63,990 bases of DNA, filler included, from Aduncisulcus paluster (GCA_024181965.1; 9 parts of 9 records of this genome joined end to end with filler, not necessarily neighbours in it); one strand, 5' to 3'. Positions 1 through 57,083 are shown, counted from the first letter of the whole stretch. The notes: a model not told the origin generated them from the letters alone. Translations and numbers: made by a program.

Positions 1-4
1 CGGG

Positions 5-567
5 GAAATGTCATGTTCCATGAAGCATCAGGGGATTAGATTCGTAGCAGTATACAGACATATGTATAGCATCGTATTTCGAGTTCTTGATATTTTTGAT
101 TGTAAGCAAAGGCAAGTGAAAATGAAACAGAAAGGCAAGGATAAGGATAGAAATGAAATGGAAATATATCCAAGTTATTGAATGGCATTGAAATCGTTCA
201 TAAATGTTCTTAACACGTGAAATGGAACTATATCCAGTCCTGATGGGTCTCCAAAAGCCTGAGATATCGAGAATAAACACCATGGCATGGAAATGGAAAT
301 AAAACATGTTTTTATCATTTGTCAGCATTTAACTCGTTTATATGTGTGTTTTATAAATTCCCAATCTTATCTATTGAAGAGTTGCTTGTTCAGTCTGTTG
401 GCGGCTAAGCACCGATGTCCATTTTTTCTTTGCAAACGAGCAAATTGTATGTTTACTATATGCCATATCTTTTATTAAATGTATATTAAGAAATATTTTA
501 ACAGGATTCATTCATTATTCTGCTTGTTTTTATATTTATTTAGATAAGAAATTCTATCTCTATTCAA
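5..567. repeat. Dispersed ~0.6-kb non-coding repeat, copy 1, upstream of a variable-domain family gene
   Basis: Reverse complement of ~10075-10650; also matches 14085-14822 and 40731-41118. Confidence 0.9.
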
Positions 568-1686
568 ATGAGTTCTTCCACAGATGCTGTTATTCAAACT
601 GTGGAGCCTGTGTTTGTTCATGGAGGATACACCAATTGCTGTCCAATTCCTCGAGATTCCCCCAATATTAAGAGTGTAGAATTTCCAACTATCAAAGCAA
701 TAGATGGAACCAAGGAAGAAGGTGATAAAAAGTACGATCAGAGTTCTAAAGCACAAGATATGATGAAAGGAGAGGATAATTATGGACAATTTACCCATAT
801 CTCCATCCCTTTCTCTTCATCTTCCCCAATGAAAGGTGTTTATATCTGTCTTGATGGTAGATCTTATTCTTCACCTCCATCACACCTTATCTTCACTCTC
901 ACATCTTCAAAGGGTGATAAAACATCCAAAAAATACGAATTTCCTGGATTTGAAGGTTTTCATTGGCATTTCCTTCCTGTTGATCTCCCTGATGTTGTTC
1001 TGTGTGAGATTACAGGGAAAGGAAGAGAGGAAGAGTGGTTTGAAATCGAATCCCTTGTTTTCATTAGAAAAGAAACTCCTGAAGAAATCAAATCTCGTGA
1101 AGCCAGAGAGAAACTATGGTCTGAAGCTCAAGTTGTGAAACCAGAGTTTGTTAAGGTGGGAGTTATAAAATATGGCTTTGTAGAATCTTATGATAAAAAA
1201 TCTATTCCCATTCCACGTGATGATCCACATCTTGTAGATCCTTCATTCTCAATGGTTAAGTGCAAGAATGATTCGAAGAGTAAGGAATCTGAAAAGTATG
1301 ATCAAAGTTCAGAAGCACAAAGAATGTTAAAAGGGGAAGATGGTGTTTGTTTATCCCATCTTTCCATTCCTTTCCCATCACCTAGTCCAATGAAAGGTGC
1401 TTATATCTGTGTGAGTAAGTATTCTAGTTCACCCTCTCTTCTCTTCACTTTCACTGATTGTGATGATAAGAAAACATGCAAGAAGTATGAATTCACAAGA
1501 CCTAAACATGAATTTGAATGGCACTTTCTTCCTATTGATTTGGATAATGTTGTTTTGTGTGAGATAGAAGGGAAAGGAATATGGTGTGATAAGAATAGTC
1601 GAGGTTTCTTTATCCACTCCCTTGTATTTACTATGCCCGAGGAAACCATTGCAGCTGAACGAGTATCTCTTCTTCCATGGAAATAA
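568..1686 (+). CDS. Variable-domain family protein (two ~165-aa domains, no kinase)
   Basis: 372-aa ORF with two copies of the H(I/L)SIPF..SPMKG.YIC...FT.T...K...KKYEF...WHFLP.DL..VVLCEI.GKG motif; paralogous to 9010-10074 and 10784-13949. Confidence 0.85.
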   Translation: MSSSTDAVIQTVEPVFVHGGYTNCCPIPRDSPNIKSVEFPTIKAIDGTKEEGDKKYDQSSKAQDMMKGEDNYGQFTHISIPFSSSSPMKGVYICLDGRSYSSPPSHLIFTLTSSKGDKTSKKYEFPGFEGFHWHFLPVDLPDVVLCEITGKGREEEWFEIESLVFIRKETPEEIKSREAREKLWSEAQVVKPEFVKVGVIKYGFVESYDKKSIPIPRDDPHLVDPSFSMVKCKNDSKSKESEKYDQSSEAQRMLKGEDGVCLSHLSIPFPSPSPMKGAYICVSKYSSSPSLLFTFTDCDDKKTCKKYEFTRPKHEFEWHFLPIDLDNVVLCEIEGKGIWCDKNSRGFFIHSLVFTMPEETIAAERVSLLPWK

Positions 1687-1980
1687 TTCAAGAAATGGTA
1701 TAAAATGCTAATATTCTGTGAAGAATAATAAAAAAAAAAGTACCTGTTTTTATTTCTGGGGTCTTTATTCTAGATTGTTGGACAAAATCCCTATGTCATA
1801 GGGCCTATGAGTTGGAAACGGAAGTCGAATGCAATGCATTCAATGTATTGTCACAATACATTGGGACGGTCCCGAAAAGAGATTCCTCTAATCTTCAATT
1901 AAGTTAATTGAGCCCAGAATTGCCAATTATCATAAATAAAAAGTATTAAAACACATAATTTAATATCATTTATTCGGCCA

Positions 1981-3315
1981 TTATTTAATTCTCCAGGTGG
2001 ACCATAAAACGAGAGTCCCGAGAAGCTTCTGCTCGAATTCAGTAAGGTACATTGAGTGTCCTGCCTCCCAAACTGCCGATCTTGTTCCGTTATGTTCGAA
2101 TACCGTTAAGTAAGGGACAGATTCATGGGCCATTATAATACTTTCCTCCCTTTGGAGAGGAACTCCAAAGCTCGGATGTGTTGGAGCAATCTTTGGGGGC
2201 TCACTATCAGCATTGATACCAACAAACTTCACAATGTTATGGTCAGCGAAAGCAGTGAGACCGGATATCTCAGGAATTTCAATGTAATCAACGATTTCTT
2301 CTCCTTGTTCATTTTTGGTCTTGTGTTCACGGCCCTGTTGTTTGCCAACATTCCAATACCCGCTATATCTCATTGTTGGAGTGAGAGGAACGAATGTACG
2401 GGTGAGGACGTCATGTGTGAAGATAATGGAGCCTCCTTGATCCTGATAGTGAAGAAGAGCAACGGANNNNNNNNNNNNNNNNNNNNTATGGTCAGCGAAA
2501 GCAGTGAGACCGGATATCTCAGGAATTTCAATGTAATCAACGATTTCTTCTCCTTGTTCATTTTTGGTCTTGTGTTCACGGCCCTGTTGTTTGCCAACAT
2601 TCCAATACCCGCTATATCTCATTGTTGGAGTGAGAGGAACGAATGTACGGGTGAGGACGTCATGTGTGAAGATAATGGAGCCTCCTTGATCCTGATAGTG
2701 AAGAAGAGCAACGGAGAGATTATGACGTTCATTTTCATCCATGTATTCAACGATCCAATCTCCAAAATGCTCCACAATATCAAAGATAACAACATCATAG
2801 AGATCAAGTAAATCAAAGGTTACTTTGGAGACATCTTTGTGATCAATGAGAAGAAGAGAGTTGGGGATTTGAAGTTTAGATAAGTATTGCACCAGAGAGT
2901 GATGGGATGTCTCTGCATCATCAGCAGCATCAGTTACATGAGTGAAGCACTCATCCTCCTCATCGAAGTTAGTTGTCAGAACAAGGGCTCTTATCTCAGA
3001 AACATCTCTAATAAGAGGCATTTTAGGGGATGATAGCCGAGTGAGAGATTCAACAGAACCGTTCAAATTGACATTCATATAGAAAACTTGTAAAACAGTA
3101 GATATGCATAAAACTATCAGAGCTATTGAAGAAATCAAATTAAACCATCCTCTTCCAGACATTTTCATCGGATTTCTCCTGATGGGTTCCTCAGGTGCCC
3201 GAGGTTCGGGTTTCTTATTAGAAGGCGTTTCTTTTTCATTTTCAGACACAGATTCGGATTGAATATCATCAGAAACATCTTGTTTCTTATCAATCAATTC
3301 CTCTTTTTCACTCAT
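1981..3315 (-). CDS. Type II membrane protein with putative class-I glutamine amidotransferase-like (DUF5057-like) domain; ~361 aa after removing the gap duplication
   Basis: One TM segment (WFNLISSIALIVLCISTVLQVFY); motifs YDVVIFD, YQDQGGSIIFTHD and AVWEAGHS..LTEFEQKLLGTLVLW. The 249-nt offset repeat around the N gap 2467-2486 is an artefact. Confidence 0.6.
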   Translation of the reverse strand: MSEKEELIDKKQDVSDDIQSESVSENEKETPSNKKPEPRAPEEPIRRNPMKMSGRGWFNLISSIALIVLCISTVLQVFYMNVNLNGSVESLTRLSSPKMPLIRDVSEIRALVLTTNFDEEDECFTHVTDAADDAETSHHSLVQYLSKLQIPNSLLLIDHKDVSKVTFDLLDLYDVVIFDIVEHFGDWIVEYMDENERHNLSVALLHYQDQGGSIIFTHDVLTRTFVPLTPTMRYSGYWNVGKQQGREHKTKNEQGEEIVDYIEIPEISGLTAFADHXXXXXXXSVALLHYQDQGGSIIFTHDVLTRTFVPLTPTMRYSGYWNVGKQQGREHKTKNEQGEEIVDYIEIPEISGLTAFADHNIVKFVGINADSEPPKIAPTHPSFGVPLQREESIIMAHESVPYLTVFEHNGTRSAVWEAGHSMYLTEFEQKLLGTLVLWSTWRIK

Positions 3316-3658
3316 GTTATGAATCTAAAGCAAAACAATAAAATGAGATCAGTGATCTCTGCGCGTGCAAAAATGCCGTCTGACTACTGATTGGTCTTTG
3401 CAATAATACTGATCTTTACAATCCTTTCCAACAATAAAATCCTATCTATATCACAATAAAGTTAATTTTCCATTATTACGTTTCATTTTTTTGCGTTTTC
3501 TGTCACTCTCCGAACTGGCTTCTATTTCCGCCATTTTTGAATGTTTAAAATAAATATTAAATGTTTCATTTCATTACTAATGCGTTAGCTGGGAATTTAC
3601 GACGTATTATTGCCTGATTTCTCCTTGGGAATTTGACAACACTCTTTGTATTACACGC

Positions 3659-4294
3659 ATGTCATTGAAAATTAAAACTATTGATCCAAACCGGAAAAGG
3701 GCAAGCAAACACAGAGTGAGCAAAGTTCGCCATGGTGGACCCCAGATATTCAAGGATGAGATGGAAGTAGACAAAGAAGAGCAAAAAAAGATATATACGG
3801 AATTGAAACGTCAAAATAAGATCCTAAACAATTTGTGGAGAGCTTTACTTCTATGTGTCATCGTTACTGTGGCCATTTTCTTCACAGTTGCCGCTTCTAT
3901 CAATGGATTCTACCCCGAGAATTCTAAAAAGATTCATCTGATTGGAGAACGTGATGACATCGAGATCAACGCTTTTATTGTGACAGGAGACATCTTGACG
4001 GCCCTTTCTGCCGTTATTGTTGGTGCTTTCTTATTCAGACCCAAAAAAACACCTCCAATTGTATCAAAGTACATATTTGGCACTTGTTTTATTCTTAATT
4101 CAATTTGCTCTGCCTTTTACTCCAAAATTTGTTTCTCAAATGAAATTCCTTTCCCAACCACTCTATTCATCCTTGGCCTCACTGGATTGATCCTTTCTCT
4201 CCTTGTATATGCTGCTGACCTCAGTATAAGAGGAAGCGATGATGCTTTATACCATCTAAAATCCACTATGGGTAGACGTCATAAGAAAAAGTAA
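3659..4294 (+). CDS. Four-TM membrane protein of unknown function
   Basis: 211-aa ORF; EEQKKIYTELKRQNKILNNLW helix followed by four hydrophobic segments and a basic tail. Confidence 0.75.
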   Translation: MSLKIKTIDPNRKRASKHRVSKVRHGGPQIFKDEMEVDKEEQKKIYTELKRQNKILNNLWRALLLCVIVTVAIFFTVAASINGFYPENSKKIHLIGERDDIEINAFIVTGDILTALSAVIVGAFLFRPKKTPPIVSKYIFGTCFILNSICSAFYSKICFSNEIPFPTTLFILGLTGLILSLLVYAADLSIRGSDDALYHLKSTMGRRHKKK

Positions 4295-4598
4295 GTGAAA
4301 TTTCTCATCTTTCCAATCTTTGGAGTCTGTAATTTTTTCGAATAAATTTCCGATTGTAAATCTAATATTATATTGTTTTAGAGCTCATATCATGCAATAT
4401 GTAAATGGGAATACAGCGAAAAAAAAGTTTGGGCCACTACAACCATCCTTGAAATACAAACCAATTTTTAGCATAAATTTTTAATATTATCATTTCATAT
4501 TGATATTGCCTGAATAAAAGCCAATATTTATTCGATTTGAATTTTTGCAATTATTTTTTTGCGTTTTTCCCTTGATTATAAGAATATTTTAAGAATTG

Positions 4599-7500
4599 AT
4601 GGACATTGACTTTTCGGGTAACATTGAATCAAGACTAAAAGACTTGATAACAATCTCAATTTTTAATTTTAAACAGAAGAAGGAAGAAAGTGATCATTTG
4701 ATGCAGCATGTGTGCAATTCAATCAAAAATTATGTCTTTAGCCAGAAAACTGATACAAAACCGGTTACTGATAAACAAAAATACGAAATTCTTCAACCAT
4801 TTATTGAGTTTATAAATGTAGTTTTGTCATCAAAGGATGTAATTTATCGGAAAAGAGCAGCCAAATGTGTTTCTTATCTTTTGAAACCAGTCAGTTTACC
4901 TCCATATGGACAGAGAATAACGTTCTTTTCCACCAAACTTCCCACTGATGTTATCTCGCATGAATTACGAGATTCTTTGAAAGATTTATTTTTATCTGCC
5001 ATTTCTAAAGCGTGGAGTGACAGTGCCATATCTGTTAGGTCAGAAATAACCGGAGCTCTCTGTCTTTTCATCAACCAAGGTCCCATCACGTTGCAAACCC
5101 TCTACAATGAGCCTTCAACTGATGTAAAACTTAATATAATATCTCATTATGAACCCTTTGAACATCAAAAGTTGACTCTTTTGTTCCTCTCTTCTTCTCC
5201 GACTGAAGTTGTGATCCAACTCATTCGAAAGCTCTGTGATACCAGCAAAGCTCATTTATTCCATGGATTTGATCCCGAAATATTCTCCTTGGCCCGCATT
5301 CAGACGTCTCTCTTTTGGTTGATGCAGCGTGGTGATTCTTGTCTTGGTATTGTTCTTAAATATGAAGTTGTCATGCTTGTATGTCATTTAATTGCTCATT
5401 ATGATTCATATTTCTCACGTTTTTCTGATATTTCCTGCCAACACGATGTGATTCTTGCACTTTCATTGACTCCGACACCGAATAGCTTGGATAACATGAA
5501 TCAGATATCAAGGGAGATGTGGGAAGTCCAACCTCATGGCAGAATGTATCTAAATATAGTTAAACAGTGCGTTGAAGAATGTATTGATATATCTCCGGCT
5601 AAAGTTGAGAAGGAAGTGCTGAAAAAATCTCTCCAACCGAAAAAAAAGATGACAACAGCTCTAAAAACATCTATCAGGGAAATTGTTGAAAAAATCATCG
5701 AATTTCGACCCCTTCTACTCCATTCATATTCCAAATCAATATACAAATCAATGTGCGTAATATCAAACCCCCAATATGAATCCAGATTAATGCAATATCT
5801 TACACACGGGAAAGATGAACTCTCAATCTGTGGTAATTTATGTGTTTCTGCATGTGGATGTCATGCTTCACAGTTACTACTTTCTCACCAGTCTATTTTT
5901 AGCCAAACTTCTTCTCAATTTGATTCAGAAGAAGATGAAATTATACTTCAGATTGAAATGGAACCATTAATTAATGCCTTACGAGTCATATCGAAATATT
6001 TCATTCCTTCAACAATTGAAGAAGAGAAATTGAAACTCAAGTCGTTAAAGTCAAGTATAGCTTCCATATCGCGTTATTTTATGGTTCTATTTTTAGTTTT
6101 GAGTAACATTACCACATTAATAGATCATTCGTCTGTTTCCATCGATATTTCTTGCATTAAATTGTGTATGAATGAAGTTTCAAACGTTCTTAAAGCTCAT
6201 GCATTTTTACTGTATGCTGAACGTCGCTTAAAACCTTCAAAAGCTCACGTAGATGTTGAAATTGATGAGTTGGTGTGCTCGTGGAATTGTATATATTCTC
6301 TTTGTGCCCGCATTTGTGCATGTGCAGCCTCATATGAACCTGATCAACATTTAGCTATTGTTTCATGGATTCGAACAATTGCAAACGACTATCTCCAACT
6401 TGAAATAGTGAGGCACAGTGAAGCTGAAAGATTCAGAAAAGAGGAAGTTGAAGAAGAGAAAGAGGAAGAAGAAGTTGAAGAAGAAGAGGAGGAAGAAGAG
6501 GAGGAAGAAGAAGAGGAAGAGGAGGAAAGAGGTGAAGAGGATCTAAATATAGACAATGAGAAAGAAGTAGAATACAATGATGGTGATGACCATAAATCCA
6601 AACTTCAGAGTAATGTGTATGGCTATAGTACAGCTGCTGGAAAGAGTACTATTCTCCCTCATAGCTGTATTTTTTGTTCCTTACCTTCTCTCTCTGCTCT
6701 ATTAACTGAAAATGTCGGAAGAAGAACAAAACAGAAACTTCTTGTATATTCTTCCTTTTCTGCACCGAAAGTATCTGTTTTATTNNNNNNNNNNNNNNNN
6801 NNNNGAAGAGGAGGAAAGAGGTGAAGAGGATCTAAATATAGACAATGAGAAAGAAGTAGAATACAATGATGGTGATGACCATAAATCCAAACTTCAGAGT
6901 AATGTGTATGGCTATAGTACAGCTGCTGGAAAGAGTACTATTCTCCCTCATAGCTGTATTTTTTGTTCCTTACCTTCTCTCTCTGCTCTATTAACTGAAA
7001 ATGTCGGAAGAAGAACAAAACAGAAACTTCTTGTATATTCTTCCTTTTCTGCACCGAAAGTATCTGTTTTATTGTATTTTATTGCACAGTGTATCTTAAT
7101 ATCTTCTCACCCCGCTTTACTCTTCAAACATTTATCATGTTCTCTGAAAGAAAAATGTATCTATTCGATGGCGTTGGAGTTAAGCAAGACACTTAACTCT
7201 ATCGGAAAACGACAGATTGTCAAGAATGAACACGTTCTGGGGTCTTTTCTTTCTGTAATTAATGCATGTATTGTAACAAGGATTATAAAATGGGATATTA
7301 TTTCTGTTAAGGAGTGTTCTATACAAACCACGGAAGAAACTAAGTCACCCACACAGGGTTGTCCTATGTTAAAATCAACCCCAACGATTTGTTCTGGTCA
7401 CCTTACTGGTCACCTTACTGGTCATCTTAGTGATCCAGATCATCTTAGTGGTCACAACCTTGGAAACACTCCTGAAGGAAATGGTAGTGTAGTACCAGGA

Positions 7501-8979
7501 TTTACAGGAGAAGAAAGTGGGAAAGAATCATTTGTAGCTGACTTTCTTCAAGGAAAAAGAAGACAGTTTCCTTTAACTCCATCATCAACAGCTATCACTC
7601 ATATGGAACGTAATCTTGATCAAAGAAGGAAACATTATCTCTCTCCTTCCATCTTTCCCTCAGAGTCAGTAAGGGAGACAAGAGAAGAGAGAGAAGAGAG
7701 AGAAGAGAGAGAAGAGAGAGAAGAGAGAGAAGGAAAGAAAGTCACATTTATGCTTCCGAAGGAAGAAGGTGATGAATTGAATGATTCTGAATTGAATGAA
7801 CAAGAAGAGGAAGAAGAAGAGGAAGAGGAAGAGGGAGAGGAAGAAGAAGAGGAAGAGGGAGAGGAAGAAGAAGAGGAAGAGGGAGAAGAGGGAGAGGAAG
7901 AGGAAGAGTTAAAATTGGAGGATTTGTTACCGACATCTGCCAATCTCTCTATCTCTTCTCTTCTTGTTTTCATGTCCTCTGTTTCTTCTCATCTCTCTCT
8001 TATTTCCACACTATCCATTGTATCTTCTTCTCTAACTCATATTATATCACAATTACTATCACAATATAGACATAGACATTCTTCTCTTCTTTCCATGTCT
8101 ATGTCTATGTCTACAAAATATTCAAAGATATTCTCTAGAAGAGCAAAGACTGTTATCGCGAGTGTTATGGCTCACCTTGAATCATTGCATCCTTTCCTGC
8201 AACGATTGCTTGTGAGCGAAGAAAGTTCATCAATCGATCCACTCACTTTGAGATCTCTCTTCATAACATCCCATGCCATTCTGCAGTACTCTGCAATGGC
8301 CACGATGCTTTATACAAAGAATCCAATGAAGAAAATCCATTTTCATTTGAAATATCTCCTCAATGTTGCCAGAGATATTGGCAGTGGTGTTGTATTGCTC
8401 GTTCCACGGGTGATACGACCAATTTTAGGCAGTAGCATCATAGTTTCTGAGCTTGGAGGCTGGAAAGATGAGTATGACCGACGTTGTATCGAGAAGTTGG
8501 AAATGCCTAAGAATACGTATGCTGTTCAACTTGTGTGTGAGTCAATCATTGGTGCTATCCTAGGAGAAGGTGTTCGTGAAGGAGAGATATCTGCATTTAA
8601 ACTATTCCATTCTTTGCTATGGTGTCTCTCTTCAACTAGACACATTGTGGCAGTGTGTGAGTTATCCTTATGTCATAAACTACTCATTGGAAATGGAGAT
8701 GGCCTCTCAAAGAAAAAAAAGAAGGATTTACTTGAGTTGCTTGTGCCTCCTTTCTTCAATTCTCAGGCAGGTAAGCATCCATTGGACAAGGAATATCAAT
8801 CAGAAGTTAATATCTTGTGTGAGGATCTGTCTCCCCTTGCTTCAACGATTTCTCTTCGAGCTAAGCTTGGAGAATGGATAACTTTTGTTGCTGAAGACAG
8901 TTCCAGCGATGAGCTTAATGATATTGAGTCAATATATATTGACATCTCGGCTAAACAAGGAATGCGATTTGGAGAATAA
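4599..8979 (+). CDS. Large HEAT-repeat protein with acidic tracts (~1363 aa), possibly condensin Cap-G-like
   Basis: ORFs 4596-6824 and 6712-8979 join in frame once the 289-nt duplication plus gap (6785-6804) is removed. N-terminal SKDVIYRKRAAKCVSYLL / DSAISVRSEITGAL / NEPSTDVKLNII resemble Cap-G HEAT repeats (tentative). Confidence 0.65.
7681..7908 (+). repeat. Purine-rich coding low-complexity repeats (REE repeats, poly-E/G)
   Basis: (AGAGAAGAG)n at ~7681-7731 and GAA/GAG runs to ~7908. Confidence 0.8.
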
Positions 8980-9009
8980 TATTTAATATGTTGTGAATAA
9001 ACGACACTT

Positions 9010-10074
9010 TCACATACAGCAGCAGGTAGTGTCATCACCACGAAGGAAAACAAGGGAGACGATGCAGAAACGTCGACTATTCTTCTCCTTCCAACTTCCT
9101 TTCCCTTCAATCTTACACAATACAACATTATCCAAATCAATAGGAAGGAAGTAGCATTCTTCGTCATCTTTAGGTTTTGTGAATTCATACTTCTTGGATG
9201 TCTTCTTACCATAGCAATCAGTGAAAGTGAAGAAAAGAGAGGGTGAACTATCTTCATTCACACAGATATAGGCACCTTTCATTGGATGAGGTAATGAGAA
9301 AGGAACGGAAAGATGGGATAACCATACAAAACCTTCCCCTTTTAACATTTTTTGTGCATTTGGACTCTGATCATAATACACAGATTCCTTACAAAAGGCA
9401 TCATCCTTGCACTTAACCATTGAGAATGAAGGATCTACAACTTGAAGCTTTAGTTCTTTTCGTAGAATGGGAATAGAATCAATACCTCCCACCTTAACAA
9501 ACTCTGGTTTCACAACTTGAGCTTCAGACCATAGTTTCTCTTTGACTTCACGAGACAAGGTTTCTTCAAAAGTTTCTTCTCTACCAATGAAAACAAGGTA
9601 GATGATTCCAAAATACTCTTCCTCTCTTCCTTTCCCTGTAATCTCACACAGAACAACATCAGGGAGATCAACAGGAAGGAAATACCAACGACTACCTTTA
9701 AATTCAGGAACTTTGTATTTTTTGGATGTTTTATCACCCTTTGAAGATGTGAGAGTGAAGATAAGGTGTGATGGAGGTGAAGAATCACCATCAAGAGATA
9801 TATAAACACCTTTCATTGGGGAAGATGAAGAGAAAGGAATGGATATATGGGTAAATCGTCCATAATTACCCTCTCCTTTTATCATCTTTTGTGCATTAGA
9901 ACTCTGATCGTACTTTTCATCACTTTCTTCCCAGGTTTCATCTCTCGCTTTGATAGTTGGAAATGCTGCACTCTTAATATTGGGGGCATCTCCAGGAACT
10001 GGACAGCAACCGAATTTTCCTTCAAGAACAAACTTAGGTTTCACATTTTGAACTACACTTTCAGTTGAACCCAT
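9010..10074 (-). CDS. Variable-domain family protein (two domains, no kinase) with N-myristoylation motif and C-terminal CaaX-like CCCM
   Basis: 354-aa ORF starting MGSTES and ending TTCCCM; paralog of 568-1686. Confidence 0.85.
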   Translation of the reverse strand: MGSTESVVQNVKPKFVLEGKFGCCPVPGDAPNIKSAAFPTIKARDETWEESDEKYDQSSNAQKMIKGEGNYGRFTHISIPFSSSSPMKGVYISLDGDSSPPSHLIFTLTSSKGDKTSKKYKVPEFKGSRWYFLPVDLPDVVLCEITGKGREEEYFGIIYLVFIGREETFEETLSREVKEKLWSEAQVVKPEFVKVGGIDSIPILRKELKLQVVDPSFSMVKCKDDAFCKESVYYDQSPNAQKMLKGEGFVWLSHLSVPFSLPHPMKGAYICVNEDSSPSLFFTFTDCYGKKTSKKYEFTKPKDDEECYFLPIDLDNVVLCKIEGKGSWKEKNSRRFCIVSLVFLRGDDTTCCCM

Positions 10075-10683
10075 TTGAATAGAGATATAATTTCTCAGAA
10101 ATAAGGCTTATCTAAAAAATAAAAACAAGCAGAATAATGAATGAATCCGGTTAAAATATTTCTTAATATACATTTAATAAAAGATATGGCATATAGTAAA
10201 CATACAATTTGCTCGTTTGCAAAGAAAAAATGGACATCGGTGCTTAGCCGCCAACAGACTGAACAAGCAACTCTTCAATAGATAAGATTGGAAAATTAAA
10301 AAAACACATATAGACGAGTTAAATGCTGATAAATGATAAAAACATGTTTTATTTTCATTTCCATGCCATGGTGTTTATTCTCGATATCTCAGGCTTTTGG
10401 AGACCCCTCAGGACTGGATATAGTTCCATTTCACGTGTTAAGAACATTTATGAACGATTTCAATGCTATTCAATAACATGGATATATTTCCATTTCATTT
10501 CTATCCTTATCCTTGCCTTTCTGTTTCATTTTCACTTGCTTTTGCTTACAATCAAAAATATCAAGAACTCGAAATACGATGGTATACATATGTCTGTATA
10601 CTACTACGAATCTAATCCCCTGATGCTTCATGGAACATGACATTTCATTCCACCCAACTCCAACTCCAATTCCAACTCCAACT
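10075..10683. repeat. Dispersed non-coding repeat, copy 2, ending in (TCCAAH)n
   Basis: Inverted copy of 5-567; the contig ends in CCAACTCCAACTCCAATTCCAACTCCAACT. Confidence 0.9.
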
Positions 10684-10783
10684 NNNNNNNNNNNNNNNNN
10701 NNNNNNNNNNNNNNNNNNNNNNNNNNNTTAATTAATTAANNNNNNNNNNNNNNNNNNNNNNNNNNNNNNNNNNNNNNNNNNNN
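10684..10783. other. Artificial contig linker (also at 15842-15941, 21375-21474, 41119-41218, 51373-51472, 56984-57083, 59944-60043, 62475-62574)
   Basis: Identical N44-TTAATTAATTAA-N44 six-frame-stop spacer, eight times. Confidence 0.98.
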
Positions 10784-13700
10784 CAGGTTTGATGTCTCGA
10801 TGAATAAGCTTCTTCTTTGCCGTGAACACATCATCGAGACATTCAATCATGCCAACACATAGGGCGGCAACTTTCACGGGGTTCAGTGTCATGGGGTCAA
10901 ACAAAGTGGGGTCTTCATCTTCATCTTTTGAGGAAGTGTCAGACTCAGATTCTTCGTCATCCTTAGCACTCACATACTTGCCATCAGCACACCAACGCTT
11001 GGCAAACGCACTCACACTGCCTCCAACACAGAACTCCATCAAGAAGCCATACACACCTTTCATATCGCAATCAAGCAGGTCAAGGATATACAGAGGACGT
11101 GGGATACGGTTGAAACATTTGGGATTGTTGAACAACTTGAGTTGTACTTTGAACTCCTTCCGACACCCTTTCACAACAGTTTCATCCGCAATCCGAAGCA
11201 TCTTCTTCAGAACACATGGGAAAGGAATGCCATCAACTTTGACAAGAAGAACCTCTCCGAACCCACCACTGCCAATGATGCACTGGGGAGTGATGGTGGA
11301 TGCAGATGTCAGGGTTAGCGAGTCGTGCTTGGGGTTATACTTGGATTCTTCTCGGGATTTTGTCTTGGCTTCTTCCTTAACAGATATTGAAGGCTCCTTG
11401 GTTTTGGAAGAACTGGAAGGAACATGTGTAAGAATAGAAGAGGTAGGGATATCGTCATTTCGAATGAATATGAGAGATTGGATAGAGCTCCATCTACTTT
11501 TTTTATCACACCACGTCCCTTTCCCTTCAATCTCACACAATACAACATTTAACAAATCAATAGGAAGGAAATGCCATTCAAATTCATGTTTAGGTTGTGT
11601 GAATTCATATTTCTTTGACGTCTTCTTACCATCAGAATCAGTGAAAGTGAATAGAAGAGAGAGGGGACCATAATCTTTACCAATGCAGATATAGGCACCT
11701 TTCATAGAGGAAGGTGATATAAAAGGGATAGAAAGATGGGATAATGCTACACTCCCTCCCAAATTCACCATTTTCTTTGCATTTGAACTTTGATCATACC
11801 TTGTAGATTCCTTGCAATATGAGTCATCCTTTCCCATCACTTTAGAAAATGAAGGCCGTAATATTGATGAATGATCACGTGAAATAGGACAAGAAAATAT
11901 TCCTCCTTCTTTAATAAACTCTGATTTAGTAGGTAAAGTTGTAAGCCATAGATTTTCCTTGAACTTAAATTTTGATAATTCCACAGAGCGTGCTTCACGG
12001 ATGAAAAAGAGGGCTTTAATTTTAAAATTCGCACTTTTCTCTGAGCTTCCAACTATCTCGCACAGAACAACATCAGACAGATCGATTGATAGGAAATACC
12101 AACCATACCCATCACATTTCCTTTCAAAATCATATTTTTTAAACGTTATTTTTCTCTTAGAAGATGTAAAAGTGAAGATAAGACAATTCATAGGCAAATC
12201 ATCACGATTTAGACAGACATAGGCCCCTTTCAAAGGAGTAGGAGCAAAAGGGAGGGAGATCTCACTGAAGGGTATATCATTTACCTCTCCTTTCATCATA
12301 GCTTGTGCATAACGGCTTTGATTAGCACCAATTTCTTTTGATTCCTTCGTAGAATGTGCTTTGATGGTTGAAAACTCTGGATTTTTGATGTTGGGAGCAT
12401 CTCGCGGAATTGGACTATAATACCAAGCTCCTTCATGAATAAACGGGGGATTAACGGTTTGTATATCAAAAGATTGTTGTAAACTTGTTGACTTGGATAA
12501 AGAATCTTTGTCTGAGGAAAAGCCAGCACATTTCAGCGACCTTGATGTTATTTTGGGAGCAATGTCAATGTCAGCATAACCTCGAAGGAAAACAAGGGAG
12601 TAGATAATGAAATGTCGACAATTCTTCACATCCCACGTTCCTTTCCCTTCAATCTCACACAATACAACATTATACAAATCAATAGGAAGGAAATGCCATT
12701 CATATATATGTTTAGGTCTTGTGAATTCATACTTCTTGTATGTCTTCTTACCATCACAATCAGTGAAAGTGAAGAGGAGACAGGGTGAACTAGTATACTT
12801 ATTCACACAGATATAAGCACCTTTCATTGGACTAGGTGATGGGAAAGGGATGGAAAGATGGGATAAGAGTACATCATCTTCCCCTTTTAACATTTTTTGT
12901 GCTTCTGAACTCCGATCATACCCCTTAGATTCCTTGCTCTTCGAATCATTCTTGCACTTAACCATTGAAAATGAAGGATCTACAAGCTTTGGATCATCAC
13001 GTGGAATGGGAATAGAATCTTTCCCAAAAGATTTTTCATCTCCTTCCTTAACAAACTCTGGTTTCACAACAGGAGCTTCAGACCATAGTTTCTCTCTGGC
13101 TTCACGANNNNNNNNNNNNNNNNNNNNATAAGCACCTTTCATTGGACTAGGTGATGGGAAAGGGATGGAAAGATGGGATAAGAGTACATCATCTTCCCCT
13201 TTTAACATTTTTTGTGCTTCTGAACTCCGATCATACCCCTTAGATTCCTTGCTCTTCGAATCATTCTTGCACTTAACCATTGAAAATGAAGGATCTACAA
13301 GCTTTGGATCATCACGTGGAATGGGAATAGAATCTTTCCCAAAAGATTTTTCATCTCCTTCCTTAACAAACTCTGGTTTCACAACAGGAGCTTCAGACCA
13401 TAGTTTCTCTCTGGCTTCACGAGATGCGATTTCTTCAGGAGTTTCTTCTCTACTAATGAAAACAAGGGATTCGATTCCAAAATACTCTTTCTTTCTCCCT
13501 TTCCCTGTAATCTCACACAGAACAACATCAGGGAGATCAACAGGAAGGAAATACCAGCTAAAATTTCCTTTTAATCCAGGAAATTCGTATTTCTTGGATG
13601 TTTTATCACCCTTTGTAGATGTGAGGGTGAAGATAAGGTGTGATGGAGGAAATATAGAAAAACCACATAGACAGATATAGGCCCCTTTCATTGGGGAAAA

Positions 13701-13949
13701 CGAAGAGAAAGGAATGGAGATATGGGTAAAACATTCATTATTATACTCTCCTTTCACCATCTTTTTTGCTTCAAAACTCTGATCGTACTTTTTATCATCT
13801 TCTTCCTTGGTTCCATTAATTGCTTTGATAATTGGAAGCTCTGCACCCTTAACATTGGGGGCATCTCTAGGAATTGGACAACAACAACCCGATCCTTCAT
13901 GAATAAACACAGGTTCCACAGTTTGAACTACACTTTCAGTTGAACCCAT
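10784..13949 (-). CDS. Variable-domain family protein kinase: four ~165-aa domains plus the start of a Ser/Thr-type kinase domain (3' truncated by contig end)
   Basis: MGSTES start; IGSGGFGEV, VLKKM, KEFKVQ, LMEFCVGG, HRDIKP. The duplication around gap 13108-13127 is an artefact. Confidence 0.9.
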
Positions 13950-14084
13950 TTGAATAGAGATAGAATATTATACCTAGAATAAAAATAGAATAATTATGAA
14001 TTTTAAGGAGAACAGTCCGAGAAACAAAGACAAAGATCAAACGAAAAAGAAACGACCATACAGCACAATATAGTTAGTATAATT

Positions 14085-14822
14085 GAATGAATCCGGTTAA
14101 AATATTTCTTAATATACATTTAATAAAAGATATGACATATAGAAAACATACAATTTGCTTGTACGACGAGAAAAAATGGAGGACTGAACAAGCAACTCTT
14201 CAATAGATAAGATTGGAAACTTTAAAAACACACATATAAACGGGTTAAATGCTGGTAAATGATAAAAACATGTTTTATTTTCATTTCCATGCCATGGTGT
14301 TTATTCTCGATATCTCAGGCTTTTGGAGACCCATCAGGACTGGATATAGTTCCATTTCACGTGTTAAGAACATTTATGAACGATTTCAATTTTATTCAAT
14401 AACATGGATATATTTCCATTTCATTTCTATCCTTATCCTTGCCTTTCTGTGCATTTTCACTCGCTTTTGCTTACAATCAAAAATATCAAGAACTCGGAAT
14501 ACGATGGTATACATATGTCTGTATACTGCNNNNNNNNNNNNNNNNNNNNGACCCATCAGGACTGGATATAGTTCCATTTCACGTGTTAAGAACATTTATG
14601 AACGATTTCAATTTTATTCAATAACATGGATATATTTCCATTTCATTTCTATCCTTATCCTTGCCTTTCTGTTCATTTTCACTCGCTTTTGCTTACAATC
14701 AAAAATATCAAGAACTCGGAATACGATGGTATACATATGTCTGTATACTGCTACGAATCTAATCCCCTGATGCTCCATGGAACATGACATTTCCTCCTTT
14801 CCTACCAACTCCAACTCCAATG
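14085..14822. repeat. Dispersed non-coding repeat, copy 3
   Basis: Same sequence as ~10137-10683 with a small internal deletion; internal duplication around gap 14530-14549. Confidence 0.88.
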
Positions 14823-15271
14823 CCAGATCCTGATCATCCCATACATTTAATACTGAGATTTGTGCTATTTCACCCTAGATTGACAATATGACAATCATGG
14901 AAAGTGATATCGTAGGTTTTTGAATTTTGTATTGAATCGGTCATGCAATGGAAGCGAATAGATGTACAGAACTAGAAGTACTACATATTGTACTACAATA
15001 TCCATGTGTAAGTAGTATATGATATCAATTCAAAGAAATGTTTACTTCATAAAAATGGAACAGTAATAACAGTAACAGAAATAATAATACAGAATAGAGA
15101 ATAGAGAATAGAGAACAATTCCAAACAAGGCGCCAAAGTTCAATAATAATGTCTCATCGTGAAGGAGAGTATGCAACATGTTCAACCTTCAACCTTCAAC
15201 CTTTGAATGAACTCTTCTCTCAAATTGTTCCAGTAAGAATAAAATTTTACATCAGAATCTTTCCACATCAC

Positions 15272-15841
15272 TCACTGACTCTGATCCCAACCTTCCTCAT
15301 GCTCAACACCAACAACATCGCATCTCATTCCTTCAATGGTTCCAACAGAGCCACCATACTTCTTGCGTTGCTCACGGATAATGGCTTCAATGCTTGGACA
15401 GTCATAGTCTTCGCCAATCGTGGGAAGGAAAGGTTTGATGCATTGGACTTTCACACGAGCTTCATGCACTCTCATACGTTTGTCAACATCAAGCAGAGTG
15501 AGACCTGTGAATACTTCATTCAACACTTTATGAACAGGTTCGTACTTGCCATCCTCAATGGTCAAAAGGGTTTTGAAAAGGGAAGAACTGGAGAGTTTAG
15601 GGGTCATCCCAGATGTCATCAGCTGAGAGAGTTTTGTCATGAATTGAATGCTATCAATTATCCCACGAAGACCTGGGTGACCGAGAAATGGCGGAAGACA
15701 AGTGAATAAAGAAAGGATAGATAATCCAAGAGAATATCCATCACTACTCTGGGTTTGAAGACCTTCCATTAACGTTTCATACGAGTTGTAAACAAGAGTT
15801 CCACAATTTGAACTGATATCTTCTTCTCCTTCGTCTTGAGG
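15272..15841 (-). CDS. Protein kinase C-terminal lobe (5' truncated), probably the previous member of the same kinase family
   Basis: Open from the contig edge: CGTLVYNSYE (subdomain VIII), SDGYSLG (IX), DVDKRM (XI). Confidence 0.85.
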   Translation of the reverse strand, partial: PQDEGEEDISSNCGTLVYNSYETLMEGLQTQSSDGYSLGLSILSLFTCLPPFLGHPGLRGIIDSIQFMTKLSQLMTSGMTPKLSSSSLFKTLLTIEDGKYEPVHKVLNEVFTGLTLLDVDKRMRVHEARVKVQCIKPFLPTIGEDYDCPSIEAIIREQRKKYGGSVGTIEGMRCDVVGVEHEEGWDQSQ

Positions 15842-15941
15842 NNNNNNNNNNNNNNNNNNNNNNNNNNNNNNNNNNNNNNNNNNNNTTAATTAATTAANNN
15901 NNNNNNNNNNNNNNNNNNNNNNNNNNNNNNNNNNNNNNNNN

Positions 15942-17908
15942 ACTTCAGATAACCCGCACCCACTGACAGACAAGGATGTAAGACCGGAATCAATGGAACC
16001 ATAATCATTTGAATAACTCACTGCCTTTGCTAAGATCTGAACAACCAGTTTATCATACTCGGCGTTAGAATTAGTATCTCCACTCAAGTCATATCCATCA
16101 AGGGTCAAAGAGGTCAGTGAAGTGGCATACTCAAGACCTTGAAGTGTGGTGAGCTCTGTAACATCAGAGATGTTTGAGCTATAGGAAACAATATCAGAGA
16201 GGGAGAGCGAGGTACAGGTGAGAGCACTCCTCAGGGTAGCAACACTGATGATACCATTAGTTTCAATGTCATCGGCAGTCAAACATGAATTGGTTTCATC
16301 AGAGAGGTATGTTCTAAGTTCATCGTCATGAACAGTGTAACACTCACCACTATCACCTTCCTTGGCAATGAACGCACATTCTTTAGAATCAACCCCGTCA
16401 AGACTGTTGTACACCTCATTCAGGACAACGGAAGGACACTGGTCGTATGTATCGGGATCACAGTAATAAGGAGTGTTTCCAGCATCGTCGTTAAGAGGAC
16501 AGCTGTTGGGGAGATAATACTGATCCAAAGAAGAAGAATTTGTATCAAAGGTAGCAAACACGGCAGAAAGGAATGTTTGATATTCGGTATCCGTCTCTGA
16601 ACGACAAATAGGAATTCTAGCTATTGTATAATCAGTGTTAGCGACAGGGAGCATAGCTATTCCGATATTTCTGAATAGCACAGAAATATCGTAGATGGAC
16701 TCATTTCCGGCAATGTCGACATAATACAGCCTATTCATTACGTATAAAGAGGAAATATCATAGACATTGGTGCTGTAATCCGTGTCATCTGTCTGGTAGG
16801 GATGCAAGGAGTAAAGCTGAGAAAGGGCAGAAAAAGGAGCCACACTGGTGATATCGGTGAAGTGGCAATAAAATTCGGAAATATTAATTAATTTTTGGGC
16901 ACCCTCAAAGGTCTTAATATTCATGTAACCCAAATCAATTGATCCAGAAAATGTGGCCATCTCGAATTCTGTAAGATCACAGAGCGCATCGGCATATCCA
17001 TAAGCTTCACATCCCTTTTCTCTAAAGATCTGGTCAGGGATATGAACAGAGAACATGTCGTCACAAGTATCCCCATACCACTCCACTCGGCAGCCAAGTT
17101 CAGGAGCATCACCTCCATCCTCAAAAATACACATATAATTTCCATCAATATACGCAGAACACTCTAAACCAGAGTCTAAGACACATGATAACGTGCTCTC
17201 ATCAAAGTAATACCCAGACTCACATTCAGCCGCATAACGGCCAGATGAAATCTCGGTACACTCCAAATGATCATCCTCAGAAAGATAACGACCACATTCA
17301 ACAGAAAATCCATACTGGCAGTTGTCTCCACTGTATCCAGTGTCACATTCGCCATAGACAGATTGGAGAACGGTGAGAAACGCGAAGATGAAGAACAGAG
17401 AGTCAATTGATGCCATACGCTTATAAGGTACCGATATAAGGGGTACTGATGGAAATATACCCATAAATATCATTGACCTGAGGAAAATTATAACACTCAG
17501 GCCGAGCAAAACAATAGAGTAAAATGGTTTGAGAGAGGGCTTCTCAATGGTAAGAGAATCAGGAACATCGACGCTAAGGCAAAGATCTGGTCGAAAAAAG
17601 ATAGAATAATCAGCAAAATGATCAAATGGTTCCTTTATCATAAGATTTGACAATGTTTTGTCATTCAAAGTTTGTGGAATCGAGAGATATGAATATCCAG
17701 AAAAATCTCTTATAATAGGAAAAAATAAAGAATGGTTTAAGTCAAGCATTGATTGGAATTGACCTTGGTGGTGAATAGAAGTCCTGGCCAGAAATTCTGG
17801 TATCGAATTACAGGAAAGGACAAATATGGTGGTTAATAAAATAAAAAATGGAATAAATAAAAAGGAAAAAACATTGTATTTCATTTTTCGCAATGTAAAA
17901 TTCGACAT
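15942..17908 (-). CDS. Cys-rich EGF-like/LRR surface protein, N-terminal part (3' truncated)
   Basis: Hydrophobic leader, CDTGYSGDNC and CRVEWYGDTC EGF-like motifs, IPDQIFREK cap, LQGLEYATSLTSLTL LRR. Start at 17908 or 17884. Confidence 0.8.
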
Positions 17909-19339
17909 AATTTGAAATAACAGCCAAAAAAAAAACAAAAAAAAAATAACGAAACTCAGTGAGTGTTGACTAAATTAAATGTTGTTTTGAGGATGAAAGT
18001 TTGTTATAATTAATGGATTTAATGAGAAAATTGTTTTTCTAATTTTCAATGTTTGGTTATTCGAAATTCAGTTTCAGTTCCATTTTTGGCGCTTAGCTAG
18101 ATAAAATAAAAAATAAAAAAAATTGAATTTCATTTTTCGCAATGTAAAATTCGACATAATTTGAAATAACAGCCAAAAAAAAAACAAAAAAAAAATAACG
18201 AAACTCAGTGAGTGTTGACTAAATTAAATGTTGTTTTGAGGATGAAAGTTTGTTATAATTAATGGATTTAATGAGAAAATTGTTTTTCTAATTTTCAATG
18301 TTTGGTTATTCGAAATTCAGTTTCAGTTCCATTTTTGGCGCTTAGCTAGNNNNNNNNNNNNNNNNNNNNNNNNNNNNNNNNNNNNNNNNNNNNNNNNNNN
18401 NNNNNNNNNNNNNNNNNNNNNNNNNNNNNNNNNNNNNNNNNNNNNNNNNNNNNNNNNNNNNNNNNNNNNNNNNNNNNNNNNNNNNNNNNNNNNNNNNNNN
18501 NNNNNNNNNNNNNNNNNNNNNNNNNNNNNNNNNNNNNNNNNNNNNNNNNNNNNNNNNNNNNNNNNNNNNNNNNNNNNNNNNNNNNNNNNNNNNNNNNNNN
18601 NNNNNNNNNNNNNNNNNNNNNNNNNNNNNNNNNNNNNNNNNNNNNNNNNNNNNNNNNNNNNNNNNNNNNNNNNNNNNNNNNNNNNNNNNNNNNNNNNNNN
18701 NNNNNNNNNNNNNNNNNNNNNNNNNNNNNNNNNNNNNNNNNNNNNNNNNNNNNNNNNNNNNNNNNNNNNNNNNNNNNNNNNNNNNNNNNNNNNNNNNNNN
18801 NNNNNNNNNNNNNNNNNNNNNNNNNNNNNNNNNNNNNNNNNNNNNNNNNNNNNNNNNNNNNNNNNNNNNNNNNNNNNNNNNNNNNNNNNNNNNNNNNNNN
18901 NNNNNNNNNNNNNNNNNNNNNNNNNNNNNNNNNNNNNNNNNNNNNNNNNNNNNNNNNNNNNNNNNNNNNNNNNNNNNNNNNNNNNNNNNNNNNNNNNNNN
19001 NNNNNNNNNNNNNNNNNNNNNNNNNNNNNNNNNNNNNNNNNNNNNNNNNNNNNNNNNNNNNNNNNNNNNNNNNNNNNNNNNNNNNNNNNNNNNNNNNNNN
19101 NNNNNNNNNNNNNNNNNNNNNNNNNNNNNNNNNNNNNNNNNNNNNNNNNNNNNNNNNNNNNNNNNNNNNNNNNNNNNNNNNNNNNNNNNNNNNNNNNNNN
19201 NNNNNNNNNNNNNNNNNNNNNNNNNNNNNNNNNNNNNNNNNNNNNNNNNNNNNNNNNNNNNNNNNNNNNNNNNNNNNNNNNNNNNNNNNNNNNNNNNNNN
19301 NNNNNNNNNNNNNNNNNNNNNNNNNNNNNNNNNNNNNNN

Positions 19340-19900
19340 CATCGACGCTAAGGCAAAGATCTGGTCGAAAAAAGATAGAATAATCAGCAAAATGATCAAA
19401 TGGTTCCTTTATCATAAGATTTGACAATGTTTTGTCATTCAAAGTTTGTGGAATCGAGAGATATGAATATCCAGAAAAATCTCTTATAATAGGAAAAAAT
19501 AAAGAATGGTTTAAGTCAAGCATTGATTGGAATTGACCTTGGTGGTGAATAGAAGTCCTGGCCAGAAATTCTGGTATCGAATTACAGGAAAGGACAAATA
19601 TGGTGGTTAATAAAATAAAAAATGGAATAAATAAAAAGGAAAAAACATTGTATTTCATTTTTCGCAATGTAAAATTCGACATAATTTGAAATAACAGCCA
19701 AAAAAAAAACAAAAAAAAAATAACGAAACTCAGTGAGTGTTGACTAAATTAAATGTTGTTTTGAGGATGAAAGTTTGTTATAATTAATGGATTTAATGAG
19801 AAAATTGTTTTTCTAATTTTCAATGTTTGGTTATTCGAAATTCAGTTTCAGTTCCATTTTTGGCGCTTAGCTAGATAAAATAAAAAATAAAAAAAATTGA
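19340..19900. repeat. Exact duplicate of ~17568-18125 across a 990-N gap (18126-18349 also repeats part of it); probable assembly redundancy
   Basis: Appears identical on reading and sits next to a gap. Confidence 0.8.
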
Positions 19901-21374: not shown

Positions 21375-21474
21375 NNNNNNNNNNNNNNNNNNNNNNNNNN
21401 NNNNNNNNNNNNNNNNNNTTAATTAATTAANNNNNNNNNNNNNNNNNNNNNNNNNNNNNNNNNNNNNNNNNNNN

Positions 21475-41118: not shown

Positions 41119-41218
41119 NNNNNNNNNNNNNNNNNNNNNNNNNNNNNNNNNNNNNNNNNNNNTTAATTAATTAANNNNNNNNNNNNNNNNNNNNNNNNNN
41201 NNNNNNNNNNNNNNNNNN

Positions 41219-51372: not shown

Positions 51373-51472
51373 NNNNNNNNNNNNNNNNNNNNNNNNNNNN
51401 NNNNNNNNNNNNNNNNTTAATTAATTAANNNNNNNNNNNNNNNNNNNNNNNNNNNNNNNNNNNNNNNNNNNN

Positions 51473-56983: not shown

Positions 56984-57083
56984 NNNNNNNNNNNNNNNNN
57001 NNNNNNNNNNNNNNNNNNNNNNNNNNNTTAATTAATTAANNNNNNNNNNNNNNNNNNNNNNNNNNNNNNNNNNNNNNNNNNNN

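Follow-up and report, generated by a model that had tools for sequence, protein, structure and literature searches.

Hypervariable Jelly-Roll Modules, in Part Joined to Kinases, as a Candidate Germline Recognition Repertoire in the Fornicate Aduncisulcus paluster

Germline repertoires of diversified recognition domains are known from animals, plants, and fungi. In the fish finTRIMs, the loops of the TRIM B30.2/SPRY domain are said to have been diversified by duplication and positive selection. We know of very little of this kind in free-living protists and of nothing in the Fornicata, the group that includes Giardia. For Podospora anserina, a report on HNWD, het-d, and het-e describes 10 genes whose conserved WD repeats are exchanged within and between paralogs in concerted evolution, with a few interaction-surface positions under positive diversifying selection (PMC1805685). 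Here we describe a family of hypervariable modules encoded in a 63,990-nt stretch of DNA (hereafter the window) from Aduncisulcus paluster (GCA_024181965.1), a free-living microaerophilic fornicate (PMC9933649), and in particular three genes of that family lying between positions 568 and 13949. We hold, with moderate confidence, that the family is a cytosolic, diversified germline repertoire of predicted binding surfaces on a constant scaffold, coupled to kinases.

The closest described systems share some of these features but not their combination in A. paluster. The two families appear alike in being intracellular, in exchanging repeats, in diversifying surface positions, and in fusing a recognition part to a signalling or effector part. 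They differ in that HNWD uses a WD40 propeller, whereas the A. paluster proteins use a jelly roll with a C-terminal kinase and number 330 or more; of the 63 long family members that were scanned, none gave a Pfam match to NACHT or NB-ARC at E≤1e-4. TRIM-B30.2 proteins likewise join an intracellular beta-sandwich recognition domain with diversified loops to an enzymatic signalling part, but their sandwich belongs to another family and their effector is an E3 ligase, not a kinase. No RING, B-box, or SPRY domain appeared among the Pfam matches of the family members scanned. Discoidin-domain receptor tyrosine kinases and lectin receptor kinases also carry the binding domain N-terminal to the kinase (the DDR1 discoidin domain reached a Z of 9.6 in VIA); they are transmembrane proteins with an extracellular binding domain, whereas a hydropathy scan of the A. 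paluster proteins showed neither a signal peptide nor a transmembrane segment between array and kinase. Some family members, like TXNL1 (PITH domain, Z 9.6–10.7), pair the fold with thioredoxin, but thioredoxin is N-terminal in TXNL1 and C-terminal in P0052 and P0091, and there is no sequence match to PITH. The family belongs to neither the HNWD/NLR nor the TRIM group, though its mechanism resembles both.

The original prediction, made from the DNA alone, had proposed three close paralogs built from two or four copies of one domain, with one paralog fused to a kinase. Open reading frames (ORFs) and a hidden Markov model (HMM) of the domain gave the following features.

568–1686, plus strand: gene 1, two-domain, kinase-less, 372 aa (ORF, domain HMM)
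595–1071, plus strand: gene 1 domain A (domain HMM)
1129–1638, plus strand: gene 1 domain B (domain HMM)
9010–10074, minus strand: gene 2, two-domain, kinase-less, 354 aa (ORF, domain HMM)
9577–10050 and 9037–9519, minus strand: gene 2 domains A and B, respectively (domain HMM)
10784–13949, minus strand: gene 3, four domains, linker, and kinase N-lobe (ORF, domain HMM)
13446–13925, 12579–13073, 11994–12461, and 11457–11933, minus strand: the domains of gene 3 (domain HMM)
11250–11279, 11199–11216, and 10785–10802, minus strand: G-loop, beta3 Lys context, and HRDIKP of the gene 3 kinase
12813–13422: assembly artefact in gene 3, with copies at 13128–13422 and 12813–13107 flanking a 20-N gap (exact identity)

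The three ORFs are intact, and the HMM places two full copies of a ~160-aa domain in each of genes 1 and 2 and four in gene 3; domains A and B within one protein are ~45% identical. The proposed copy numbers stood; an apparent fifth, partial domain of gene 3 is an artefact, since identical 295-nt copies flank the gap at 13108–13127. The kinase fusion held as well, in the form of an N-lobe that the contig end cuts off at HRDIKP. The gene 1 product is identical to database protein P0044 and its C-terminal helix or tail reads ...EETIAAERVSLLPWK; gene 3 corresponds to the annotated partial protein P0288 (100% identity). Genes 1 and 2 are convergent, one at either end of the contig at 1–10683, and gene 3 lies on its own 5,058-bp contig (10784–15841); since the contigs differ, gene 3 is no physical neighbour of gene 2.

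The domain had been called unrecognised, and so it remains at the level of sequence. No Pfam family matched genes 1 and 2 at E≤0.01, none matched P0004 or a divergent single-domain member in the window at E≤1, and a 9-sequence profile run against solved sequences reached a best E of 0.14, to an unrelated chain (chance level). Protein-atlas feature matches to CBM32 and F5/8-C scored 0.82–0.85, below 0.9, and served as a lead only. A beta-sandwich had also been guessed, and AlphaFold2, Foldseek, and VIA agree on it. The AlphaFold2 model of gene 1, built with the alignment of 69 paralogs described below, has two beta-sandwiches, a linker helix (residues 171–186), and a C-terminal helix, with a predicted local distance difference test score (pLDDT) of 91.3 and a predicted template-modelling score of 0.86; a model of the single-module subfamily gave the same fold (pLDDT 95.3). 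The best solved matches in Foldseek were tandem CBM32 (E 2.5e-9), neuropilin b1b2, and allantoicase. VIA matched CBM32, F5/8 type C, DOC/APC10 (HECTD3, HERC2, APC10, CUL7), IFT25, the muskelin discoidin domain, and PITH, with Z of 10–13 for gene 1 and 11–12.6 for the single-domain subfamily. Single-domain matches to gene 1 had a root-mean-square deviation (rmsd) of 2.5–3.6 Å over 118–135 residues. Across all VIA alignments the span was 118–159 residues; the longer APC10 and muskelin ones had rmsd 4.1–6.4 Å, APC10 chains aligned to the window protein at up to 4.6 Å, and two tandem CBM32 rows (Z 12.9–13.1) aligned both domains at 11.5–12.3 Å.

These models predict that the module is a galactose-binding-domain-like jelly roll of ~160 aa followed by a helix. 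No sub-family can be named because the Z scores are tied, within about 1 Z (gene 1/subfamily: HECTD3 DOC 11.3/12.6, APC10 10.9/12.2, PITHD1 10.5/11.8, IFT25 11.1/11.7, CBM32 11.2/12.0). Over about 120–160 aligned residues the fold is the same as that of known families of galactose-binding-like jelly rolls, several of which are cytosolic protein-binding modules; membership of the superfamily is structural only, as there is no sequence similarity. The A. paluster module adds an N-terminal hairpin (residues 9–30) and a C-terminal helix, and its arrays of up to 15 modules and its germline hypervariability are not known as features of the other families. Bicupins (oxalate decarboxylase, vicilins) also surfaced in Foldseek and were set aside as two-barrel look-alikes, with a template-modelling score of 0.1 and lower probability. 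A search of a viral fold library returned generic F5/8-C or tail-fibre type matches only, with no hint of a viral origin.

How the module varies was clear from an alignment of 69 full-length two-domain paralogs, all with open ORFs. Most columns are near-invariant, and short segments reach 3–3.7 bits of entropy. Each domain has 4–5 such hypervariable segments, and each of the ten patches exists in 57–68 distinct versions among the 69 paralogs, which bears out the idea of an invariant framework with hypervariable loops. Mean pairwise identity is 0.775 in the framework versus 0.477 in the patches. The variable stretches that had been noticed after YIC, after GKG, and near the N-terminus recur in the alignment, and another follows KKYEF. 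In gene 1 the patches, defined by entropy over the 69 paralogs, are:

625–639, 769–792, 850–876, 943–966, and 1024–1053, plus strand: hypervariable patches A1, A2, A3, A4, and A5
1159–1200, 1333–1350, 1414–1428, 1495–1521, and 1579–1617, plus strand: hypervariable patches B1, B2, B3, B4, and B5

The entropies of aligned domain A and domain B positions are correlated (Spearman 0.62, p 1e-17, 154 pairs), and the distant single-domain subfamily varies at the same positions. In both domains the variable connections are the lead-in to strand 4, S5–S6, S7–S8, and S9–S10 (mean 1.4–2.7 bits), in strict alternation with the conserved turns S4–S5, S6–S7, and S8–S9 (0.34–0.76 bits). Since successive connections of an antiparallel sandwich sit at opposite ends, the four in-series variable segments should fall at one end, which by this topology would be distal to the termini and the linker helices. 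Along the first strand of this series, and likewise along the last, variable residues take turns with invariant ones, which fits one exposed face, and an additional variable patch lies in the N-terminal extension of the module. The 36 hypervariable sites (entropy ≥2.5 bits) are enriched in Tyr (12.9%, 3.9x), Trp (5.7%, 3.3x), and Asn (4.5x), as well as in His and Asp/Glu, and are poor in Pro, Met, Thr, Val, Ile, and Leu. Such a composition resembles that of binding sites, and domains of the discoidin, CBM32, and DOC type bind ligands through loops at one end of the sandwich. As the variable segments would by topology fall at that end, each module may carry a binding surface of its own.

The family is large and, as far as matches carry a source label, confined to A. 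paluster. A near-length search with the 354-aa gene 2 protein found 157 relatives; among the 120 listed, 119 are A. paluster proteins, all annotated "hypothetical protein ADUPG1_...", and one is the window's own protein. A nine-copy profile of the domain, run against 1.84 billion representative proteins, hit 179 clusters at E≤1e-3, whose proteins hold as many as 15 modules and reach 3,335 aa; all ten of the matches that we looked up, weak ones included, came from A. paluster. Starting from the divergent window copy we retrieved a subfamily of single-module proteins of ~190 aa, 28 in number and without exception from A. paluster; the kinase N-lobe led to 132 longer proteins, with A. paluster the source of all 120 matches listed. 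In the pooled retrieval 330 of 369 proteins carry the module, in 819 copies (1–15 each). These 330 amount to ~2% of the 15,316 predicted proteins (PMC9933649). That genome announcement is silent on the family, and we found no description of it in the Aduncisulcus literature, of which the orthogroup tables of PMC11437800 could list it.

Public contigs, too, are in keeping with a highly abundant repeat. Those from the organism's own sample gave 15,153 matching pieces in run X1 and 2,714 in run X2 at ≥80% likeness. In the DNA run, summed depth is 0.5–2.6 million over most of 661–1584 versus ~1,250 in a single-copy flank (1915–1980); this depth, which is not itself a copy number, suggests hundreds to about 2,000 copies. 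In run X2, taken for RNA only by guess, the 2,714 pieces cover the coding region, 625 of them at ≥99%, and summed depth is 34.5 in 397–462 (34.5–1,056 over 265–528) versus 19,000–112,000 across the bulk of the coding region. As the depth of contigs does not allow the parts of a gene to be ranked, the X2 values hint weakly at best at transcription of the family and give no information on any single gene.

We then considered the kinase. The gene 3 piece, from the N-lobe to HRDIKP, reaches only E 0.25 in Pfam, but it keeps the G-loop, the beta3 Lys context, and the HRD, reading GSGGFGEV, CVLKK, and HRDIKP behind a hydrophilic linker. Its full-length relatives match PF00069 at E≤1e-4 (25 of 36 and 8 of 27 long members, a few of these under the gathering score), and the consensus of 24 complete kinases reads IG.GgFGEv, PCvLKkML, HRDiKPdNFLV, DLG, SDgySLG. 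Against solved kinases the best E was 1e-4 (CDPK, HRI, RIPK1). By its sequence, the family kinase is predicted to be a divergent Ser/Thr-type member of the eukaryotic protein kinase superfamily with intact catalytic motifs. The gene 3 contig carries a second piece of the same kinase family, upstream of the gene and on its strand, with the 5′ part of the piece lost at the contig edge (15841):

15272–15769, minus strand: kinase C-lobe, same kinase family (...QTQSSDGYSLGLSILSLF...; family consensus; C-termini of P0124 and P0128)

Module and kinase motif occur together in 98 of the 330 module carriers (about a quarter; 30% at most), and the modules are N-terminal to the kinase in 68 of 72 proteins with a placed HRD motif. 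The same kinase family is annotated with other partners too, namely chromo-like, MSP, LRR (leucine-rich repeat), and PARG-like parts (P0299, P0314, P0315, P0322, P0339, P0340), and is a widely reused chassis in A. paluster. Single long members of the family have PARP, LRR, or NYD-SP28 by Pfam, and P0052 carries a thioredoxin C-terminal to two modules (Trx E 1.3e-21), an order shared by P0091. The UniRef label "NudC domain-containing" on P0004, P0005, and P0101 was unsupported by Pfam on P0004 and P0101. We had also entertained the conserved C-terminal tail ERLSLLPWK as a kinase docking motif; this was dropped, as the tail resembles the helix following every in-array module (REAREKLWSEAP). It is common even to the distant single-domain subfamily, and the most natural reading is that it belongs to the repeat unit.

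The family had been proposed as receptors, and in the classical sense of the word this did not hold. A crude hydropathy scan of 286 proteins found no signal peptide and no consistent transmembrane segment, and none between array and kinase, so the proteins appear to be intracellular. Strongly hydrophobic 19-aa windows (mean Kyte-Doolittle ≥1.8) occur in 19 of the 286 at no consistent place; they fall on strands of the kinase or of the domains, or within N-terminal extensions that are themselves doubtful. An MG..[ST] start, which we take to be myristoylation-like, is seen in genes 2 and 3 and in 15 database members, several with an adjacent Cys. The gene 2 product in particular starts MGSTES and ends CCCM, by eye presumably a myristoylation-like start and a CaaX-like end. 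Judged from these termini, some members are probably lipid-anchored to membranes.

Selection on the variable sites was examined in the three genes. Between genes 1 and 2, positions 866–936 are identical to the reverse complement of 9715–9785, and 968–1036 to that of 9615–9683, exactly as had been predicted. Because gene-wide nucleotide divergence is 16%, identical runs of 69–71 nt are unlikely by chance. The 31 nt between the two blocks, which are patch A4 of gene 1, carry 8 substitutions, all non-synonymous (EFPGFEGFHWH vs KVPEFKGSRWY); the codon view upheld this, and over codon columns 93–218 the two genes differ by 23 non-synonymous codons versus 1 synonymous-only codon. Whole-gene Nei-Gojobori omega, the ratio of non-synonymous (dN) to synonymous (dS) divergence, was 1.15, 0.62, and 0.92 for the three gene pairs. 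We then took variable sites as defined from 67 other paralogs (55 codons, against 228 framework codons). Variable-site dN was 0.78, 0.61, and 0.90 versus a gene-wide dS of 0.13, 0.21, and 0.20, giving ratios of 6.0 (bootstrap confidence interval 3.7–10.7), 2.9 (1.85–4.8), and 4.6 (2.8–7.8); framework omega was about 0.2–0.6. In domain A of genes 1 and 2 the whole-domain omega reached 2.36, with a variable-site dN of 0.598 versus a dS of 0.043. The claim of diversifying selection finds support in that non-synonymous exceeds synonymous change at variable sites, in 10 of 12 domain pairs when both are counted within those sites.

The focus of this variation inside identical flanks is extreme, and with hundreds of potential donor copies at hand it recalls programmed diversification, in which mutagenic retrohoming of the kind used by diversity-generating retroelements, or somatic hypermutation or cassette conversion, writes the patches. 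We find this scarcely credible here. The changes show no adenine bias: those in the 31-nt patch are G>A x3, T>G, TT>AG, A>G, and C>T, and family-wide they fall into all 12 classes. The variants sit at separate loci as germline copies, and no reverse transcriptase was found among the selected window ORFs scanned with Pfam, which were not all of its ORFs.

The three genes are also mosaic. The closest pair changes along the genes, from 2+3 (codons 1–30) to 1+2 (31–120), to 1+3 (211–330), and then to 2+3 (permutation p 2e-4), and in the separately annotated protein P0009 everything from the linker on is identical to gene 2, yet the A4 patch is that of gene 1. These signals fit an exchange of short tracts between paralogs. 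Incongruence between domain A and domain B trees was tried as further evidence and rejected: the log-likelihood differences were 565 and 350 versus 299 and 270 in a control of interleaved columns, and the Robinson-Foulds distance was 124 for the domain A/B trees versus 106 for a randomly interleaved control.

Upstream of the coding regions the three genes have conserved flanks and share a repeat.

1–567: conserved 5′ flank of gene 1
10075–10683: conserved 5′ flank of gene 2
13950–14794: conserved 5′ flank of gene 3
1–341, 10306–10646, 14076–14794, and 40731–41070: copies of a ~340-bp repeat (94–96% identical)

The flanks listed here diverge by 2.7–6.1%, well under the coding divergence; over 480 nt of 5′ flank the values for the three pairs are 2.8%, 6.4%, and 4.9%. 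The ~340-bp repeat lies ~230 bp upstream of each family gene, with a lone copy 48 bp past the SUI1 gene, and contigs end inside it. Its summed depth is as high as that of the family in the DNA-like run, with good representation in the RNA-like run as well. It is probably non-coding, since the copy at gene 3 has lost 1 nt, which breaks the 105-codon ORF; no Rfam (gathering scores) or tRNA match was found in 1–16000, three copies of the repeat included.

Several points weigh against a selected, kinase-coupled repertoire. Two of the 12 domain pairs fail to show dN above dS, both involving the older fourth module of gene 3. Inside the hypervariable codons dS is raised in 2 of 3 gene pairs (0.42, 0.71), which could mean that patches were brought in from diverged donors or that sites were hit more than once. 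The dN/dS values come from three genes (eight domains) in one short-read assembly, and the clustering of variable segments at one end is a topological argument, not one based on coordinates. The domain A/B tree test is uninformative, because the random-column control was almost as incongruent. The claim of gene conversion is borne out by the mosaic structure, but chimeric short-read assembly could have inflated that signal in part, the identical blocks being near read length, and the public contigs of both runs break within the gene, with none spanning it whole. The link to the kinase is not exclusive, because 38 of 136 proteins with the kinase motif are without the module. Function, finally, is read from architecture and evolution only.

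The raised loop-codon dS is also what would be seen if the loops were neutral and unconstrained, and gene conversion homogenised framework and flanks but failed across the diverged patches, so mimicking dN far above dS. Such a model would predict a framework and a 5′ flank far more alike than the loops, as we see; older domain pairs show a hypervariable omega of only ~1–2, saturated, and there is little consistent tree signal family-wide. We judge it unlikely, as it fits poorly with the youngest gene pair and with residue composition: the domain A values of genes 1 and 2 and the 23-to-1 codon count given above speak against it, and 5.7% Trp with 12.9% Tyr is no composition of drift. Conversion tracts bounded by 31-nt patches would be unusually short unless selection removes converted patches, and more than 60 full-length two-domain ORFs remain open. 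Were the loops neutral after all, the family would be a striking case of concerted evolution that mimics selection.

A collapsed or mis-joined repeat could in principle have produced the paralogs, the mosaics, or the patches. The draft, assembled by MaSuRCA from 150-bp short reads, has 29.4 Mb in 25,863 contigs with an N50 of 4.6 kb (PMC9933649); exact duplications flank its gaps, contigs end in repeats, and public contigs break at the patches (loose ends 636, 866, 1156, 1591). Yet the pieces from X1 and X2 (15,153 and 2,714) match at 80–100% likeness, so the variants exist in the reads, and hundreds of separately assembled intact ORFs vary at the same positions. The variation is codon-structured and confined to particular structural positions, unlike errors. 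We regard an artefact on this scale as very improbable.

For the favoured repertoire, we propose the following course, the origin steps of which we read from the dN and dS values, the divergence of the flanks, and the mosaic structure. The repertoire would grow by duplication of a unit that includes the conserved 5′ flank, short tracts would be swapped among paralogs, and selection would favour amino-acid change at the apical sites. The variable end of the sandwich would give each module its binding surface; ligand captured there may control or localise the kinase, and the far commoner two-domain kinase-less proteins may serve as free binding modules, whether as adaptors or as competitors. The most likely role would be the recognition of many or fast-changing targets, either non-self (viruses, bacteria) or rapidly evolving partners.

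The modules could instead be housekeeping adaptors that steer an expanded set of kinases to cytoskeleton, flagella, or trafficking, their diversity reflecting subfunctionalisation; expansions of Nek kinases and ankyrin-repeat proteins in Giardia are comparable. The proteins are intracellular, the kinase family is also fused to LRR, MSP, PARG-like, and PARP parts, the structural neighbours include the intracellular protein-binding IFT25, APC10/DOC, muskelin, and PITH, and the organism is free-living (PMC9933649). But purifying selection is normal after subfunctionalisation, and here most differences, even within the closest pair, are amino-acid changes that fall in loops. The loop sets are near-unique per copy (57–68 variants of 69), and the family was not detected outside A. 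paluster, hence it is no conserved cell-biological module. We consider this explanation doubtful, while giving it some weight.

Within the repertoire reading, an immune-like role is plausible on sequence grounds. A bolder version, which we offer only tentatively and think rather less likely than its absence, is an independent metamonad innate-immune-like system in which jelly-roll arrays with unique surfaces on kinases detect viruses, intracellular bacteria, or prey molecules; PARP, LRR, and thioredoxin would then be occasional outputs and the free two-domain proteins sentinels or decoys. The domain is previously undescribed, the fold is new in the role of a recognition repertoire, and a cytosolic array joined to a kinase is a new architecture. 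If true, the repertoire would offer a tractable case of recognition diversity made without adaptive immunity and a structural scaffold with natural hypervariable loops, and the family would partly account for the poor assembly of the genome.

One more family member lies in the window, 23% identical to the gene 2 domain:

51870–52454, minus strand: divergent single-domain member (domain HMM)

This gene stops at ...LFCGSK, whereas its 28 relatives run on through a long helix whose end reads ERLSMLPWL; truncation, a frameshift, or splicing may explain the window copy.

The rest of the window is of mixed content. Eight spacers of the form N44-TTAATTAATTAA-N44 cut it into nine contigs:

10684–10783: spacer
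15842–15941: spacer
21375–21474: spacer
41119–41218: spacer
51373–51472: spacer
56984–57083: spacer
59944–60043: spacer
62475–62574: spacer

Because the window is made of joined separate contigs, adjacency across spacers is not physical and ORFs reaching them are cut short. Its ORFs are long and mostly open under standard stops, with a GC content of ~37% and many N runs. Ordinary genes encode a beta-eliminating lyase, a malate/lactate dehydrogenase, SUI1, a Ras-like GTPase, GYF, AMMECR1, a RING/CCCH protein, and LRR proteins. Translations are duplicated around the 20-N gaps at 2467–2486, 6785–6804, 14530–14549, 32222–32241, and 36384–36403, much as in gene 3; such gap-flanking duplications stretch ORFs artificially and split genes, for example that of the beta-eliminating lyase (35327–37263).

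Large LRR proteins with Cys-rich modules are encoded at 15942–17938 (minus strand), 18342–19712 (minus), 21516–23759 (plus), and 60048–62474 (plus). Two of them match Pfam LRR_4, and two ORFs flanking a 990-N gap have an identical N-terminus of ~120 aa. They look like another expanded, repeat-rich, hard-to-assemble family. Finally, an 833-aa ORF at 42550–45051 (minus strand) contains an exact internal duplication of ~190 aa (PLWEFGCSVCSKSATMICLRC... twice) with no N gap between the copies, which may be a true tandem duplication or an assembly error.

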